A stretch of DNA of 64,000 nt from a phage. Under the pieces are notes generated by a model. The model made no database searches and was not told the origin of the DNA. It worked only from the letters and a program-made list of their open reading frames with translations. The stretch lies in the sequence record QB031382.1. The stretch is one strand, 5' to 3'. Of this stretch, positions 40,840-48,404 are shown piece by piece. The position numbers and the translations under genes are program-made. Position 1 is the stretch's first letter, and every line of letters starts with the position of its first letter.

Positions 40840-41124
40840 CTACCAGGTCACTGTCAAGTAGGCAACCGTGTTATTTTTCTCCGGAGAGATGCCAACAACA
40901 TCCACCTGCAGACCTCCTGCCCTCAAATCCCCAACGATGTGTGGGAAGTAGTCTGAGAGGTGCGATGGGAGATTTATCGAAAATCCGCATCCCAGAAAGC
41001 CTGCTAACGCTTTATTTTGTATCTCCCCTACAATCGCATCATAAATGGAGTTAAGCTCGTCAGGAAGAGTTACAGGACGTTTTAGCGCTAACTGGTGCAA
41101 CTTGTCCTTAGCACTCATTTTCAT
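40840..41124 (-). CDS. hypothetical protein
   Basis: Start moved to ATG overlapping MTase stop. Confidence 0.45.
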   Translation of the reverse strand: MKMSAKDKLHQLALKRPVTLPDELNSIYDAIVGEIQNKALAGFLGCGFSINLPSHLSDYFPHIVGDLRAGGLQVDVVGISPEKNNTVAYLTVTW

Positions 41125-41654
41125 TTCAGGTCTACCTCTGGAGGTGCCAACCACATAAATGGCGGCAGGTCTAAACGGTTCTTCTTGTCCCACACAAAAT
41201 ATGCATATGCTTGCCCGTCAGTTCTGCCATTCGATTGGAATGATGGACGCTTAGATATTGTGATCACAGTGGTAGGTGCATTATCAAGCCACCATTCAAA
41301 TCTGGCTTTGCTTTCCAGAAAATTAAGACGCAAAAGCATAATAACTACGTCAGCATCTTTCAACGCCTTGTCTACAAACTCACGAGCCAGGCTGTACGGT
41401 GGGTTGGTGATAATACAGTCAACATGGTTGTATTCTGTATTCAGATAGTCAACACCTTCTTGGATTTCTCCCCATGCAGATCCTAATGGCATACGGGAGT
41501 AGAACACACCTGAGGCGCTGTTCCTGCAAGGCTCTAGGTAGGTCCAGTCTTCTGGGAACGGAATAAGGTCATACAGCCCTTCTGCACACCACTCCGGTGT
41601 CACATACTCGTCGTAAGCGTTACGTTGTTCATCAGGTTTTCTAGCACAAGTCAT
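41121..41654 (-). CDS. small N6-adenine DNA methyltransferase (phage Dam-like)
   Basis: Motif IV ITNPPYSLA; motif I-like YLEPCRNSASG; only 177 aa. Confidence 0.65.
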   Translation of the reverse strand: MTCARKPDEQRNAYDEYVTPEWCAEGLYDLIPFPEDWTYLEPCRNSASGVFYSRMPLGSAWGEIQEGVDYLNTEYNHVDCIITNPPYSLAREFVDKALKDADVVIMLLRLNFLESKARFEWWLDNAPTTVITISKRPSFQSNGRTDGQAYAYFVWDKKNRLDLPPFMWLAPPEVDLK

Positions 41655-41705
41655 GCAAATCTCCAGATCATAAAAGCCCTCCGAAGAGGGCTTTAGAATT
41701 AATGT

Positions 41706-42755
41706 TTAAGCTTCTTCGACAATTCCTGCACCCAGGATTTTTTCATTGAGCTCTTTTGCTGTTTTAATAATATTGTCCACCAGACGCTTGCGGGTCTTAT
41801 CTTTAACCTGAACTTCTTCACCTCCGTTCAGGGTGGTTTTCAATTGGGACAAAATGTCCTGAAGCTCTACCACAGAGAATCGCTGCAGATCTTCCGAGGT
41901 AATCTCACCCAGTGCAATCTTAACGGTCTCGCCACTCTCCATCTGCAGATTCAGGAACACAGTGTGAACATCACCTTTCACACCATTTGCTTTTGCAGAC
42001 TCAACAGCATGAACCAGCTCGTCCAGAGATGTGCATTGGTGAATCTCTGGCAGGCCTGCTTCACCTAGCACACCTTCTTCATCACTTTTTGCCAGAAGCT
42101 TTTTCGGTTTCTGTCCATTCTGAATGCGCTGAATGTTTTCATCGTCCAGAATAATAGCACCAGTTCGAGATGCCAGCTCTTCTCCATCTAACCACACTTC
42201 GCCGCCAGCTGTGATGGATGCGATCTCATCTTCTGTTAGCACTCCACCGTAGTATTTTTCGATCAGGCGTTCAAAACGTTTCTTCCAGTAGTTGACCTGG
42301 GTATTCATGTTCACACCGTTACCATAGGTGCCACCTTGATAATAGTGGAACATAAATTCTGTGTCCGGAGCCACAGTTCGTTCTTTGCAACCCAGCCATA
42401 AGATTGTTCCTGCTGAACAGCACATCCCTTCAGCGTGTACAACAACGCTTGCCTGAGACTCGCGGAATGCCTGCAAATACGCCATAGCAATGTGAACGCA
42501 ACCACCAGGGCTGTTAATGATTACACGGATACTTTCTTCTGGCTGAGCCATACGAATCGTCTGTAGACGAGACATATGATCTTGCAGGTCGTCCAAATCG
42601 TCAATATAAAGAACGTGGTCAACAACAGGTGTTGGGTAGCTGTATGTTTCCATAATACCACCAGGCATACCAAACATTTTGTTACTCATAGGTTCGAAAC
42701 CGTTCTGTTTTTCTTTCATGCCGTGTACCATGGTGCTGCGAGGTGTTAAATTCAT
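41706..42755 (-). CDS. ClpP-like serine protease with about 170-aa C-terminal extension
   Basis: VIINSPGG, GMCCSAGT (Ser) and MFHYYQGG (His) match ClpP catalytic regions. Confidence 0.7.
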   Translation of the reverse strand: MNLTPRSTMVHGMKEKQNGFEPMSNKMFGMPGGIMETYSYPTPVVDHVLYIDDLDDLQDHMSRLQTIRMAQPEESIRVIINSPGGCVHIAMAYLQAFRESQASVVVHAEGMCCSAGTILWLGCKERTVAPDTEFMFHYYQGGTYGNGVNMNTQVNYWKKRFERLIEKYYGGVLTEDEIASITAGGEVWLDGEELASRTGAIILDDENIQRIQNGQKPKKLLAKSDEEGVLGEAGLPEIHQCTSLDELVHAVESAKANGVKGDVHTVFLNLQMESGETVKIALGEITSEDLQRFSVVELQDILSQLKTTLNGGEEVQVKDKTRKRLVDNIIKTAKELNEKILGAGIVEEA

Positions 42756-42815
42756 GAGAAATCCTTAATATTGGAAGTTGAAAGCTATTTATTTAAACCT
42801 GATTCACATTTACCT

Positions 42816-43127
42816 TTATTTAGCAATCACTATAGAATACTTACGATTGTCAGAAGCATCACAGCTCAATGATTGCCAGTCTACCACATACCACGTATCA
42901 TTGTCAACAATTACTTTATCGCCTGTTCTGTAGCAGGTGCTGCTTTCAATAATCCGAGACTCGATAAAGAATCTGTGTCGGCGCTCACGTAGCAACGCTA
43001 AGTTGATTATATTACCACCACTGTCCTTGGTCCACACATTCTTGGATCCCTTATTTGCCAAAATTGTCTCGCCGTTATATACAAACAGGCAGTATATTTT
43101 ATTCAGTCTCTCTTGTATTGTAGCCAT
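42816..43127 (-). CDS. hypothetical protein
   Basis: Tool ORF; (AAT)7 tract just upstream. Confidence 0.45.
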   Translation of the reverse strand: MATIQERLNKIYCLFVYNGETILANKGSKNVWTKDSGGNIINLALLRERRHRFFIESRIIESSTCYRTGDKVIVDNDTWYVVDWQSLSCDASDNRKYSIVIAK

Positions 43128-43242
43128 ACTGTGCCCTTCTCCTTGTTTTGTTCAATAATAATAATAATAATAATATCTAAAGCTCACCTGTTTGTCAACA
43201 ACTGTTTTAGATATTTAAGGGTGGAATAACCACCCTTCTGTA

Positions 43243-44031
43243 TTACTCGGAAACAGGAGTCCAAATATGATTTGCACGATCCTCAATAAGATTGAGTGCA
43301 ATCTGACGGCCCAACCCGGAACGAACGACATCGTCTGGACTATCAAAGCTAATCATTCCAACCTCAGGATCTGGATGACGAGTAAAGAAATCCGTCACCC
43401 ATGCAAGGCCAGATTTACCAGGGATGTCACGTTGGCTATTATCACCCATAATTACAAGGGTGGCCTGATCAGAGATCCTTGTGATGATTGACAACATTTC
43501 TTCAGGATTGGTTTGCTGTGCTTCATCAATAAGGACAAAGCATCGTTCATCAAAACTACGACCACGAATGCTTTCAACCTCACAAATCTCGATACGGCTG
43601 TTCTGACCGTCCCCAAGCATTGCTGCAAAAGCACCTTTGCCAACACGACGACAAATAGTGTCCATCATGCTTCGAAGATAGGGCCACAGTTTCTGCATTG
43701 CATTTCCGGGTTTAAATCCTGAAGTCTTTCCTGTCTGAACGTAAGGACGTGCAACAATGATCTTATCAATCTCGTTCTTGCGCAGAAGATCACCTGCATA
43801 TGCAGATGCCATGAATGTCTTACCGGATCCAAACACACCGTTTACAATGATAATCTTACGCGACCCTAGATAATCAAGATACTTTTGCTGCTTTTTATTC
43901 ATTGGTCGGAGAGCTGGAGCGGTGTGCTCTCGTTCGTCAGCAAATTTTTCAGCAGCCTTACGCAGGCGATCAGATTTGCGAGCCTCTCTAGCTTCATCAC
44001 GCATGCGTTTTGTTTCTTTAGCTCGACCCAT
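43243..44031 (-). CDS. phoH: PhoH-like ATPase
   Basis: Walker A VNGVFGSGKTF with PhoH-like flanks. Confidence 0.85.
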   Translation of the reverse strand: MGRAKETKRMRDEAREARKSDRLRKAAEKFADEREHTAPALRPMNKKQQKYLDYLGSRKIIIVNGVFGSGKTFMASAYAGDLLRKNEIDKIIVARPYVQTGKTSGFKPGNAMQKLWPYLRSMMDTICRRVGKGAFAAMLGDGQNSRIEICEVESIRGRSFDERCFVLIDEAQQTNPEEMLSIITRISDQATLVIMGDNSQRDIPGKSGLAWVTDFFTRHPDPEVGMISFDSPDDVVRSGLGRQIALNLIEDRANHIWTPVSE

Positions 44032-44070
44032 GTTGGGACTCCTTTCAGATTGAGATGTGCCAAGTACTTT

Positions 44071-44421
44071 TTACTGCAATAGTTTTTCAATAGCCGCTTC
44101 CATGCTGCTTGCAACAGCCTGAACTCGGATATTCATCTCTTCTTGGTGGATCAGCTCCTTAAGCTCTTTAATGGTAAATTCTTTAGAGAAACCTTCCACC
44201 ATAATCTTGTGTAAGGCTTCTTGCGTGTCTACCTGCAAGAACTTTTCCAGTTTGTTGGCAGAGGCTTCTAAATCAGCCCGAATACGAGGGTCATCTGTGC
44301 GATTCAGCATCAGGCGTAAGCCATCAAGATTAGTAGAAATAGCGTCTGCATGTTGAGTAACTAATCGTGGCAAAATGAGATCTACAAACTTATTAGCCAA
44401 ATCGATACGTTCTTGTGTCAC
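44071..44421 (-). CDS. hypothetical helical protein
   Basis: GTG start overlapping upstream small ORF. Confidence 0.5.
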   Translation of the reverse strand: MTQERIDLANKFVDLILPRLVTQHADAISTNLDGLRLMLNRTDDPRIRADLEASANKLEKFLQVDTQEALHKIMVEGFSKEFTIKELKELIHQEEMNIRVQAVASSMEAAIEKLLQ

Positions 44422-44531
44422 TGTTGCACCCCCTCTTCATCCTCATGATGTTTCTTTTCATGCTTGTGTTTTTTCTTAAGCTCAAGCGCAATCTCTTTTT
44501 TGTACGCCTTCTTCAAGGCCTTTTTAGCCAT
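44418..44531 (-). CDS. small Lys/His-rich basic protein (37 aa)
   Basis: Hand-translated MAKKALKKAYKKEIALELKKKHKHEKKHHEDEEGVQQ; SD AGAGGAGGTG; promoter upstream. Confidence 0.4.
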   Translation of the reverse strand: MAKKALKKAYKKEIALELKKKHKHEKKHHEDEEGVQQ

Positions 44532-44550
44532 TTGGCACCTCCTCTGCTTT

Positions 44551-44580
44551 CATTACGCTAATTATAACCAACTTAACAAG
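44551..44580 (-). promoter_or_regulatory. sigma70-like promoter (minus strand)
   Basis: Minus-strand TTGACA, 18-bp spacer, TATAAT. Confidence 0.5.
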
Positions 44581-44593
44581 ACTTTGTCAACAA

Positions 44594-45067
44594 TTAGTCA
44601 ATCTGAACCCAACCGCCTGCTACCTTTTTAAACATTCTTTGGTTATCACTACCTCTGAAAGGTTTTTTGGTTGGTAAATCTTTTACATACTTTCCATCAA
44701 TGACGATATCAGCCAGTTTAAGAACATCACTAGAGATATGCTCAAATGTGAACCCAGTATACACAAGAATAGTTTTCTTGTCACCAAACTTTTCCTTAAT
44801 TCTCCTCATAAGGTCAATAATACCTGGCTCATTATAAGTAGCCAAAGGCTCTCCACCAAGTAAAGAAATACCGCATACAGATTCATTGTCTAAATCCAAC
44901 AAAATTTTCTGCAAATCTTCTTCGGTGAACTCTCTTCCTTTATCTTTTGACCAAAATGCTTGATTAAAGCAACCGGGACAAGCGTGTGGGCACCCAGATA
45001 CCCACAAAGCTGTCCTAATACCTGGCCCCTCGGTGTAAGATATCTCTGTATACCCGACAATATTCAT
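44594..45067 (-). CDS. nrdG: anaerobic ribonucleotide reductase activating protein (radical SAM)
   Basis: GPGIRTALWVSGCPHACPGCFN cluster; start set at second ATG (MNIVGY). Confidence 0.8.
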   Translation of the reverse strand: MNIVGYTEISYTEGPGIRTALWVSGCPHACPGCFNQAFWSKDKGREFTEEDLQKILLDLDNESVCGISLLGGEPLATYNEPGIIDLMRRIKEKFGDKKTILVYTGFTFEHISSDVLKLADIVIDGKYVKDLPTKKPFRGSDNQRMFKKVAGGWVQID

Positions 45068-45180
45068 ACATACTCCGCATCGCATTTAGGACAATGCCAA
45101 ATAAAATCGTCCAGTGCCTTACACCAACGAAGATTGCAATGACAACCACACTTGCAAATTTTATAAATACCTGTAGACAT
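45064..45180 (-). CDS. small zinc-ribbon protein (38 aa)
   Basis: Hand-translated MSTGIYKICKCGCHCNLRWCKALDDFIWHCPKCDAEYV; SD GGAGGT; stop overlaps nrdG start. Confidence 0.4.
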   Translation of the reverse strand: MSTGIYKICKCGCHCNLRWCKALDDFIWHCPKCDAEYV

Positions 45181-45243
45181 GCTGCACCTCCTAGTTTACT
45201 GTGTGACAACAATATGCCACATCCTTGTGACTTTTGTCAAGTA

Positions 45244-46206
45244 TCAGCAACCACAACTTCCGTAGTGCTTAACCCGTTCTATAACCTCCGCTTGCTTACC
45301 TTTATTGTAAGGACGGGAGTTTGGACTGGACAGATACCCGGATACACGTCTAATCACACTGATCGTTCCCTCTTCATGGTTTCCACACTCTGGGCATACA
45401 AAGCCTTTAGCTGTTGCACTGAACTCACCAGAGAATCCACACTTAAGACATTTATCCACAGGCTGGTTAATACCAAAATACATAATGTGTTTATATCCGA
45501 AATCAACAAGAGCTTCCAAAGCATCTAAGTTGTTTTTCAGATTTGGTGTCTCTATGTACCCAATGTTGCCACCAGAGGAGATCATAGCAAAACCTTCCTC
45601 ATACTTCCACTTATCAAAAGGCGAGCTATTGATCCATACTGGCTGATGGAAACTGTTGGTGAGGTATTCATGCTCGTGCTTCAACACTTCTGGGTATTCA
45701 CGATCCAGACAGGTTGCAGCTTTATAGCATAAACTCTCAGAAGGTGTGCCGTACAAGCTAAATGCTAGTCCACTTTCCTTCTTGTATCGCTCACAAGCAT
45801 CTTTCATGTGCTGAAGGATTCCAAGAGCTAAAGCCTTGTCACCCTCTCTGCCCAAAATCTGACAGGTTTCATACACACCAATATACCCAATACTGATGGA
45901 AGCGTACCCGTCATAGAAGAGTTTATCGATACTCTCTTCAGGATCCAGGCGAGCAAGAGCTCCTTCACACCACATGATAGGGTTATGCCCTGCCTTTGTT
46001 CCTTTTAGACGGTTAACTCTTACAAGGTGAGCCTCATATGCCAAATCCAAATATTCGTCAAGAACTGCAAAGAAATCAACACCTTCCGTTTTAGCTTTTG
46101 CCGCAATCATTGGTAGGTTAAGGCTAACAACACCCAAGTTGAATCTGCCAAGGTATTTCTCCTCGCCTGTTACAGGATCGCTATATTTCGATAAGAAACT
46201 TCTACA
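45244..46206 (-). CDS. nrdD: anaerobic ribonucleotide reductase NrdD, exon 2
   Basis: Begins CRSFLSKYSDP; C-terminal zinc ribbon and glycyl-radical motif RRVSGYLSS. Confidence 0.8.
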   Translation of the reverse strand, partial: CRSFLSKYSDPVTGEEKYLGRFNLGVVSLNLPMIAAKAKTEGVDFFAVLDEYLDLAYEAHLVRVNRLKGTKAGHNPIMWCEGALARLDPEESIDKLFYDGYASISIGYIGVYETCQILGREGDKALALGILQHMKDACERYKKESGLAFSLYGTPSESLCYKAATCLDREYPEVLKHEHEYLTNSFHQPVWINSSPFDKWKYEEGFAMISSGGNIGYIETPNLKNNLDALEALVDFGYKHIMYFGINQPVDKCLKCGFSGEFSATAKGFVCPECGNHEEGTISVIRRVSGYLSSPNSRPYNKGKQAEVIERVKHYGSCGC

Positions 46207-46968
46207 CATTATGTTCAAGGTGGTTCGCAAGGCCACCCCCGCACCATTACGTGCTGCTGCATGTCCCCATGCAGATCAGACTATATCTTCACACTTAGTG
46301 TGTCTACCATTTCGAGTGTCATCAGCTTACACCCTACACCGCTACATTCATCACGGTTAGTCGTTAGGCATTTCGTAACAGAACTCGTAATCATAGTTAT
46401 TAGGTGCACCACGTTTCAGGATAGCAGATATTCTTTTTCTATCTATTCCTAAAACATCAGCACAACATCTCAGACTCTTAAAGTGAATAACCACACCAGT
46501 TAATTTGTGGGTGGCTTTCACCCCGTGACATCTTGTGTAAAAAGCATAACAGTTGTTGTCGTATCCTTCTTGAGTATTGTCTGGGCAAGCTCCCCACTCA
46601 AGGTTGTATACGCTGTTATCTTTCCTGTTGTCACCTTTGTGCTTAACATATGGTAAATTGTCTGGATTTGGTAAAAACGCTTCAGCAACAAGTCTGTGAA
46701 CCCTTAGGCAAACAGTCTTTTTGTTCTTGCGTATCCTGACAAGACGGTAACCTGTGTTTATCTCTTCCCACGAATGAATAATTCTTTCATTTTCGTATCG
46801 GGTGCAATAAACATTGCCCATCTCGTCAATTTCATAACCTTCAAAATCACGAATTTGTTTTCTCATTTCAGGACTCCTCTTAGTCAGGAGTTCTGTTACG
46901 TTTAGCACGGGATTGTCCGTTCTGGAGTTTCCCCGTTTAGATAGATTTTACATGAGCAGTTATAGTTT
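46207..46968 (-). ncRNA. group I intron in nrdD carrying an HNH endonuclease ORF
   Basis: U before 5' splice site, G before 3' splice site; P-, Q-, R-like elements at 46880-46940; S element AAGATATAGTC at 46279-46289; 18-nt GCACGTAATGGTGCGGGG (46237-46254) identical to polymerase intron. Confidence 0.6.
46357..46866 (-). CDS. HNH homing endonuclease (intron-encoded)
   Basis: HRLVAEAFLPNP...KHKGDNRKDN...NLEW; start at ATG after SD AAGAGGAG. Confidence 0.75.
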   Translation of the reverse strand: MRKQIRDFEGYEIDEMGNVYCTRYENERIIHSWEEINTGYRLVRIRKNKKTVCLRVHRLVAEAFLPNPDNLPYVKHKGDNRKDNSVYNLEWGACPDNTQEGYDNNCYAFYTRCHGVKATHKLTGVVIHFKSLRCCADVLGIDRKRISAILKRGAPNNYDYEFCYEMPND

Positions 46969-48129
46969 ACCCATGCTTGTTACTTTGCCGTCTGTTGAAC
47001 CTGTCACTTTACGATTTAGCGGAACAGAAACAAAGTCAGGATAAATCCGCTCTGCAGAGCATTCTAAGGCCAATCGTTTCAAATCATAGTTAGGATCCCC
47101 AGGGTTCATGTTGACACCCTCCTCTAAGAAGAACAACACTTTAGGGAACACAGGTGTGATCCGTTCTTCACCAAGACCCATTTTGTGAACTTTCAAGTAG
47201 TTTTTGGTAATCATTCTACCAAAGACCGAAGTATCCAGCCCTAAACTTAATGTGATGAATGGGGTTTGCCCGTTGACAGAAGTTAACGTATTGATTTGGT
47301 AGAGCAAAGTTTGCATACTATCAAACACGTCTTTATCTGTCATTTGCATTGCAACAGTCTCAGCATCTGGCAACCAATGTTCCTGACAAAATTTAAGGTT
47401 CTTCTCATAAGTTGCTTCAGCATACTGTGCCAAATAATGATCAATATGACTCATGGTCTGACCGCCATATTGAGCACTAGCTACTGCACTAGAGATTTGG
47501 CTAAGGATTGTTGTTGCAACCCCTATTGACTTCGGCTTACTGACATGGGCGTTGCCAATGTTGAATCCGTTTTCCAGCATATCCGGATAATTTACCAAAC
47601 AACAGTTTGTTAACGGACTGATCAGGTAGTCAAGATCATGCACATGGATGAAGCCTTTGTTGTGCTCTTCAGAGACACGGTCTGGCAGGATCTGTGTTGA
47701 TGCAAGATGTTTGCTAAGGATGCCTGCAAGCAGGTCACGATGAGTATGCACATGATTAGTAGGCTTATTTGCGTTTTCTTTTGTAAATTCATCACAAGTA
47801 CGATCCAAGAATCCGCTAATATCTGCAAGCAGTTTTCCACCTGCCTCTCTGTTATTATCTCTTGTCTGTCTATACTGGATGTATCCTCTGGCTGCACATT
47901 TTAAACCCATATCCATAAGAGCATCTTCAACAAGGATATGGATATTTTTTACAGAGATCGTGCACTGGTCGGTTGGCAGATTGTTGGCAACAACTTCATT
48001 AACCGCGCAGGCAATCCGGTAAGCTTCTTCTTCAGTATGTCCAGACTCAAGTAAGGCGGACTCTGCCGCCTTGATCACCTTAATTCCGTTATAAAACTCT
48101 TCTCTACCGTCCCGTTTTACAACTTTCAC
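46969..48129 (-). CDS. nrdD: anaerobic ribonucleotide reductase NrdD, exon 1
   Basis: N-terminal ATP-cone-like region; ends ...KVTSMG before intron; in-frame stop two codons into intron. Confidence 0.8.
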
Positions 48130-48404
48130 TTTTTCTCTCCAAAACCATTCTTAACAAAAGAGATGAAATCGTCAGCACCACCTATGTGGATACTGTCAAG
48201 GTTGCTTTCCAAGAAGATCTGAGGCAACGTTCTGGGAACAAATGGGCTACACTTCTCGATAAGCTCTTCTTTTGTGTATCCTTCACCTAGCGTCTTGTAT
48301 ACGAAAGGTATGCCTTTGCTGACTGCAAATTCTTTTGCTCTTACACAATGTGGGCAGTTATCCTTACCGTAAATGATGATGAAAAAAGATTTTTCGCAGC
48401 TCAT
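48126..48404 (-). CDS. glutaredoxin-like protein
   Basis: IYGKDNCPHCVRAKE CxxC active site. Confidence 0.7.
   Translation of the reverse strand: MSCEKSFFIIIYGKDNCPHCVRAKEFAVSKGIPFVYKTLGEGYTKEELIEKCSPFVPRTLPQIFLESNLDSIHIGGADDFISFVKNGFGEKK

Follow-up and report, generated by a model that had tools for sequence, protein, structure and literature searches.

What does a ClpP-like protease do in a phage when its gene stands among genes of nucleotide metabolism and far from those that build the head? The question is raised by a coding sequence at positions 41706..42755 on the minus strand (-) of the phage sequence record QB031382.1, of which a stretch of 64,000 nucleotides (nt), referred to here as the window, was analysed. 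The open reading frame (ORF) is intact, running from an ATG start to a TAA stop codon, and encodes a serine protease of 349 amino acids (aa), recognised by profile matches and by its 99.4% identity to the protein annotated as 'ClpP protease subunit' in Escherichia phage EPFV3; it is the homologue of rV5 gp122 and FV3 ORF114. Comparisons of positions 41000-44100 of the window showed matches to 123 phage records, essentially all of them rV5-like Vequintavirus, with nt identities of 97.9% to EPFV3 and 97.5% to FV3. The gene is already known, since it corresponds to the annotated gp122 of phage rV5 (349 aa), named 'ClpP (ATP-dependent) protease subunit' (Table S3, PMC3606486); annotations of it exist for over 100 rV5-like genomes, and one PHROG family is devoted to it. 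No functional study of a phage-encoded, free-standing ClpP was found in the searchable literature. The present analysis adds that the customary name of the gene misleads, since its product is neither a plausible partner of ClpX or ClpA nor the capsid protease. The reading preferred here, with a probability of about 0.65, is that the product is a serine peptidase of ClpP fold that takes no part in morphogenesis and is not a virion component.

Fold, active site and docking surface

The motifs by which the original prediction had recognised a ClpP-type protein, INSPGG at residue 80, GMCCSAGT at 110 (Ser114), and MFHYYQGG at 135 (His137), align with Gly68 and the oxyanion loop, Ser97, and His122 of E. 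coli ClpP, respectively. The Pfam profile CLP_protease matched residues 59-168 with 50 bits (cut-off 20.2), and profile matches in PDB were to cellular ClpPs only (best E-value 2.6e-12). An AlphaFold2 model built from 40 family members gave the same picture in Foldseek, where cellular ClpP structures led (E ~3e-10, template modelling score ~0.7 on the target), the top 50 matches were all ClpP, and the best were ClpP in ClpXP complexes. The profiles of other ClpP-fold peptidases of the S49, SDH, and NfeD types stayed under their cut-offs (SDH_protease 18.2 bits against 31.3, NfeD1b_N 15.5 against 40, SppA_dom 14.3 against 155). Of the phage families, PHROG 5410 ('ATP-dependent protease', category 'other') scored 516.7 bits, with residues 24-345 covering profile positions 4-322 of 323, followed by PHROG 1827, of the same name and category, with 135.3 bits.

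The active site was compared in an alignment of 185 homologues (39 close and 146 distant, spanning less than 30% identity) with E. coli ClpP, whose sequence carried S111, H136, and D185 of the precursor at the expected positions. Ser114, His137, and the oxyanion-loop Gly are invariant among the 185 homologues, and the Ser/His machinery is, judging from this alignment, clearly under selection. The third triad position is more variable, being Asp in 98 homologues, Glu in 37, Gln in 44, and another residue in 6. At the position of ClpP Asp171, the window protein has Glu186, whereas 35 of the 39 close relatives have Gln and 98 of the 146 distant ones keep Asp. The codons, which were checked, lie at 42414-42416 (Ser114), 42345-42347 (His137), and 42198-42200 (Glu186), all on the minus strand. 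The replacement of the triad Asp by Gln in most close relatives, together with a Gly at the equivalent of Arg170, would fit a protein that has kept the ClpP fold for binding or as a structural element, with little or no catalytic activity. Such a role is nevertheless considered very unlikely, as the nucleophile, the general base, and the oxyanion Gly have remained unchanged across so divergent a set, and the third position holds a residue capable of hydrogen bonding (D, E, or Q) in all but 6 of its members.

The name under which these genes are deposited implies more than a fold. As a true ATP-dependent ClpP subunit, the protein would team up with ClpX or ClpA of the host, or join host ClpP in mixed assemblies, and in this way redirect host proteolysis. 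The Pfam score above the gathering threshold, the ClpXP complexes that head the structural matches, the handle segment kept at ClpP-like length, and the name used in GenBank annotations are all in favour of this role; the docking surface speaks against it. The residues that line the IGF-loop pocket of E. coli ClpP (Y60, Y62, F82, I90, M92, F112, L114, and L189) correspond in the window protein to R77, I79, E99, H107, E109, T127, A129, and I202, respectively, five of the eight positions being polar or charged (R77, E99, H107, E109, and T127) and all five invariant in the subfamily. The equivalent of Arg192 is Asp, and that of Arg170, a residue that forms part of the ring-ring sensor of ClpP, is an invariant Gly. 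In addition, the alignment with E. coli ClpP is poor over the N-terminal region, where the column of Leu23 (helix A) is a gap, and the protein lacks both helix A and the N-terminal axial loops. The equivalog models of ClpP reached only 22-41 bits against cut-offs of 228-361 (TIGR00493, 33.5 against 308.6; PRK12553, 41 against 228). The overall comparison with cellular ClpP (MEROPS S14; E. coli ClpP, PDB 1TYF/6WR2) is thus one of a shared alpha/beta fold, in which the nucleophile Ser, the general-base His, and the oxyanion loop coincide, with an identity of only ~20%, Glu or Gln for the triad Asp, and an additional C-terminal linker and domain of ~134 aa. With a docking pocket that is largely polar or charged, no helix A or N-terminal loops, and another residue in place of the triad Asp, the protein does not, on these sequence comparisons, support the label 'ATP-dependent protease subunit' in its canonical sense, and a role as a true ClpP subunit is judged unlikely.

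The regions flanking the catalytic domain also differ from those of ClpP. The N-terminal 44 aa (42624..42755, -) are rich in Pro and Gly and predicted to be disordered, with a predicted local distance difference test (pLDDT) score of 35-45, and stand in place of the axial loops and helix A. They contain the short motif F28-G29-x-P31-G followed by Y40-P41, conserved in the alignment of the 40 family members; the motif is loosely reminiscent of the Gly-Phe tips of unfoldase IGF loops. The ClpP-fold catalytic domain itself covers residues 45-215 (42111..42623, -; pLDDT ~90) and is the part that yields the ClpP matches in Foldseek. It is followed by a variable linker of residues 216-242 (42030..42110, -), whose alignment columns are gappy and poorly conserved and of which residues 223-242 are predicted to be disordered (pLDDT below 50). 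Residues 243-349 (41709..42029, -) form a C-terminal alpha/beta domain of ~100 aa, modelled over residues 243-343 as a helix, a beta-hairpin, a short helix, and two long helices; it has three invariant residues, F293, E297, and R322, and no relatives of this domain were found outside the family. A long extension had been anticipated, of about 170 aa after a ClpP part of about 180 aa. The extension is present, but because the ClpP fold reaches to approximately residue 215 it measures ~134 aa. Its description as acidic and helical holds in the first respect, as it is mildly acidic (isoelectric point, pI, of 5.0; the ClpP domain, at pI 4.7, is more so), but only in part in the second, as it includes a disordered linker and a beta-hairpin.

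Genome position and capsid maturation

Phage ClpP-like genes of this kind have been explained in some genome papers as prohead proteases (e.g., PMC5964084), an explanation contradicted by the context described here. Applied to the window protein, it would describe a second, ClpP-type head-maturation protease whose C-terminal extension serves as a scaffold or capsid-targeting domain. In favour of this proposal, the closest named families after PHROG 5410 and PHROG 1827 are those of ClpP-related head-maturation proteases (NF045542; PHROGs 1684, 94, 2976, and 133), which share with the window protein a phage-borne ClpP fold with Ser and His and have no unfoldase docking features. PHROG 1684 was the best of them (83.8 bits over residues 70-257, with no head-maturation PHROG above 84 bits), NF045542 was the top NCBIfam model, and head proteases of Gordonia phages match at ~30% identity; from these matches, a common ancestry with head-maturation proteases is probable. 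The NF045542 score of 62.8 bits is, however, under its cut-off of 120, so that hidden Markov model classification, one of the checks that had been suggested, does not place the protein in a prohead-protease family, in contrast to the 517 and 135 bits of PHROG 5410 and PHROG 1827.

The position of the gene distinguishes it further from head-maturation proteases, whose genes lie between portal and capsid and whose products act inside proheads, whereas the window gene lies in what appears to be an early nucleotide-metabolism region. As originally predicted, no capsid or portal gene was detected in the window: a tblastn search with the terminase, portal, XkdF protease, scaffold, capsid, sheath, and tube proteins of a close relative gave a best E-value of 0.02, over a segment of 22 aa. 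In close relatives, a complete head module with its own prohead protease is found elsewhere in the genome. In phage DrSchubert, this module occupies a single block at 3-8 kb with the portal (matching Portal_Mu), a 139-aa prohead protease, a scaffold, a decoration protein, and the capsid (matching Phage_cap_E), while the ClpP-like gene is at 107 kb, ~100 kb from the head genes, among PhoH, NrdDG, NrdAB, thymidylate synthase, and exonucleases. The DrSchubert prohead protease (bas50_0006), located between portal and scaffold, belongs to XkdF/Peptidase_S78_2 (65 bits, cut-off 24) and is likely the true capsid-maturation enzyme; although both are phage serine proteases encoded in the same genome, it is unrelated in sequence to the ClpP-like protein (BLASTP E = 1.2). 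For phages Barba18A and P26059A, a prohead-type peptidase or XkdF encoded at another place in the genome has likewise been reported, and for CB7 a prohead-type peptidase in addition to the ClpP-like protein.

Published virion proteomes point in the same direction. Mass spectrometry of rV5 virions identified 19 proteins, 16 given in the text and a further three (gp1, gp27, and gp228) in Table S5, which together make up the full set of 19; gp122 is none of these. In the portion of the CB7 virion table available, all ORFs lie between CB7_4 and CB7_29; CB7_5, annotated as a prohead protease beside the portal, is included in this portion and the ClpP-like protein is not.

The same separation from head genes was observed across the homologues of other phages, 'non-structural genomic context' being here an operational criterion of this analysis rather than a curated category. 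The homologue of Vibrio phage ICP1 (gp211) is near NrdAB, PhoH, and ligase, that of Pakpunavirus phage EPA3 near ligase and dCMP (deoxycytidine monophosphate) deaminase, and that of the KVP40-like phage R10Z between dihydrofolate reductase and a recombinase. Non-structural regions also harbour the homologues of phages phiTE, phiPsa267 (Otagovirus), Roth49, H101, Iguana, and EC152; most neighbours in H101 and Roth49 are hypothetical, and no head gene is among them. In the published descriptions of Barba18A and P26059A, the homologue is similarly outside the head module. A search of IMG/VR with an alignment of six sequences yielded 80 environmental loci in 43 clusters at 70% identity, and neighbours were collected from 41 cluster representatives. 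These are mostly genes of DNA and nucleotide metabolism, the commonest encoding NrdB, NrdA, PhoH, a PD-(D/E)XK nuclease, a RuvC-like protein, peptide deformylase, an Mre11-like phosphoesterase, and RNase H, and no head gene occurs among the recurrent neighbour families of the 41 representatives.

The predicted promoter, too, differs from the late-type motif. A consensus sigma70-type promoter, TTGACA-17-TATTAT (43170..43198, -), coincides with the predicted promoter P121 of rV5 and precedes a small ORF of 103 aa (42816..43127, -), the homologue of rV5 gp121 (PHROG 5456, no Pfam family), which would be co-transcribed with the protease gene downstream. An intrinsic terminator, GCCCTCTTCGGAGGGCTTTTAT (41670..41691, -), begins 15 nt past the protease stop codon and is identical to t122 of rV5 (Table S4 of PMC3606486). 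Promoter and terminator thus bracket two genes, the 103-aa ORF and the protease, as predicted for rV5. The total number of promoter-like sites was not above that of shuffled sequences (22 against 16.2 +/- 3.9), and only individual matches at 11-12 of 12 positions that coincide with published rV5 promoters were used. The putative late promoters of rV5 are all found at genes 030-064 and have a different motif. Since P121 is of the sigma70 type and unlike the late motif, early expression by the host polymerase is suggested.

Taken against its affinity to the head-maturation families, the NF045542 score, the XkdF protease and scaffold already present in the head module, the distance from the head genes in DrSchubert, the promoter type, the virion data, and the environmental neighbourhoods make a second head protease quite unlikely. 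The whole-genome context of close relatives therefore supports the original view, which favoured a free-standing protease over a prohead protease fused to its scaffold, and its suggested inspection of virion proteomes agrees with it within the proteins published for rV5.

A (TAT)n microsatellite extends over the -10 element of the promoter (~43150..43176, -) and is 12 nt, or four repeats, longer than in phages EPFV3, FV3, WM, Mangalyan, and DrSchubert; the -35 element and the first -10 register are still 17 nt apart despite the longer tract. The length of this tract is a possible source of variation in the expression of the protease operon.

For a non-virion, non-morphogenetic peptidase, the following course of action can be proposed. 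The protease would be made early by the host RNA polymerase and would assemble into ClpP-like heptameric rings, forming a self-compartmentalising Ser/His(/Glu) peptidase whose targets during infection would be host or phage proteins or peptides in the cytoplasm. Host ClpX and ClpA would not dock on it, as it has neither the hydrophobic IGF-loop pocket nor helix A nor the N-terminal axial loops. The C-terminus of ClpP emerges on the apical face of the ring, so that seven tethered C-terminal domains could lie over the face where an unfoldase normally binds. Because of this location, the C-terminal domain would most likely be a built-in gate or a receptor for substrates or partners. Knowledge of the proteins degraded, which could be host defence or regulatory proteins or early phage proteins, would inform the biology of phage takeover and would be relevant to therapeutic Vequintavirus phages.

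Several points weigh against this reading. No data on expression, activity, oligomeric state, or substrates were found in the searchable literature for any member of the family. The early timing is based on predicted promoters only, and since prohead proteases as a rule do not stay in the capsid, little weight attaches to the absence of the protein from virions. Catalytic efficiency is uncertain from the alignment, because Glu takes the place of the triad acid in the window protein and Gln does so in nearly all close relatives, and the oligomeric state may differ from a tetradecamer, because the equivalent of Arg170 is an invariant Gly.

A wider clade and its linkage to PhoH

The window protein belongs to a large and unstudied clade of ClpP-fold proteins that is kept by big lytic phages among early DNA-metabolism genes, frequently beside PhoH. 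In a search of 1.84 billion representative sequences, 3282 relatives were found at E <= 0.001 and 753 at E <= 1e-10, mostly of 190-330 aa. The free-standing phage genes annotated as 'ATP-dependent protease subunit' (PHROG 1827), such as those of ICP1 (gp211), Pseudomonas phage phiPsa267 (gp047), Pakpunavirus, and KVP40-like phages, encode catalytic domains 25-36% identical to that of the window protein. They are also found in a non-structural context, often just downstream of PhoH, and many have C-terminal extensions. On the other hand, most of them keep the canonical Asp, and their extensions vary in length and sequence, with about a third reaching at least 60 aa. No functional characterisation of these genes was found in the literature searched.

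In the window, the upstream neighbour of the 103-aa ORF encodes a PhoH-like P-loop ATPase (43243..44031, -; Pfam PhoH 160.9 bits). In several lineages, PhoH genes are located upstream of the protease, on the same strand, at varying distances: one small gene lies between the two in Vequintavirus and in Pseudoalteromonas phage H101, two genes in ICP1, three in Seunavirus and phage Iguana, and 3.4 kb in phiTE, while in phiPsa267 the two genes overlap. In Rheinheimera phage Barba18A, PhoH is adjacent to the protease by gene number. That the linkage recurs at protease identities of 25-36% is striking. Among the environmental loci, PhoH was present in 17 of 80 (10 of the 43 clusters), and in 15 of these 17 it was upstream on the same strand, abutting the protease gene or within 1.1 kb of it.

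This recurrent association could mean that the protease and the PhoH-like ATPase form a phage-encoded two-component machine for ATP-dependent degradation or remodelling. Besides the conserved order in Vequintavirinae and their relatives, ICP1, Otagovirus, and H101, the proposal gains from the replacement of the canonical docking surface by a different but equally invariant polar surface. It is nonetheless regarded as improbable. About three quarters of the environmental clusters have no PhoH within 8 kb, and the pairing is absent in Pakpunavirus, KVP40-like phages, and Roth49. The PhoH protein of the window matches helicase-type P-loop profiles and not those of AAA+ unfoldases. The two genes are separated in the window phage by a hairpin and a separate promoter, and the synteny can be explained by shared ancestry of a conserved early module. 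A related and equally doubtful proposal is that the peptidase, having lost the surface for ClpX and ClpA, partners with the adjacent PhoH-like ATPase, with its own C-terminal cap domain, or with both, and so became a regulated protease independent of the host. A partnership with PhoH, if true, would be the first biochemical role for phage PhoH, a very widespread gene of unknown function, and would be of wider interest.

In Roth49, a gene upstream of the protease annotated as 'phosphomevalonate kinase' was considered as a hidden PhoH and rejected, as its product fails to align with PhoH. In each of the five phage PhoH-like proteins that were aligned, the P-loop domain is preceded by ~40-60 aa at the N-terminus that are rich in Lys and Arg. 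The hairpin mentioned above, GGGTGG-TTATT-CCACCC (~43216..43236, -), lies between the PhoH stop codon and the promoter, has no clear T-run, and shows no variation among six phages; a function in weak termination or in processing is possible.

Adjoining genes and record labels

The downstream neighbour of the protease gene encodes a small N6-adenine-methyltransferase-like protein with an NPPY motif (41121..41654, -), which matched PHROG 799 with 227 bits, while its matches to Pfam Dam and EcoRI_methylase were under the cut-off. A gene of this type lies directly 3' of the protease in Vequintavirinae and their relatives (phiTE, Iguana, and EC152), and in Iguana and EC152 the start and stop of the two genes abut. 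A DNA adenine methylase gene is also adjacent by gene number in Barba18A.

The other neighbours in the window are NrdDG and NrdAB. The nrdD gene (45244..48129, -) is split into an ORF at 46960..48129, with the ATP-cone and positions 1-263 of the NRDD profile, and an ORF at 45244..46236, with positions 263-562 and the glycyl-radical domain. Between the two halves lies an ORF of 183 aa (46357..46908) with a weak match to HNH_3, and nrdD of DrSchubert is uninterrupted. The gene was probably split by insertion of a homing endonuclease or an intron; an Rfam scan of positions 41000-48300 gave no match, nor in particular a group I intron where the gene is interrupted.

The 103-aa ORF between the protease and PhoH genes was considered as a conserved adaptor or general partner of the protease. 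This was rejected because the ORF is confined to Vequintavirus; a tblastn search gave 120 phage records, each with an identity of 90% or more. In the records of some relatives (e.g., PQ014731 and MN850630), this ORF is labelled 'ClpP ATP-dependent protease subunit' or 'PhoH-like protein', labels that look like off-by-one annotation transfers. Among the records that match positions 41000-44100, 19 from GenBank (MG0656xx) are titled 'Campylobacter phage' with C. jejuni as host, and show ~94.5% nt identity over this region, with a protein identity of 96.3% in the one listed; some of these records are partial (35 kb and 75 kb), and they are probably contaminant or mislabelled Vequintavirus sequences.

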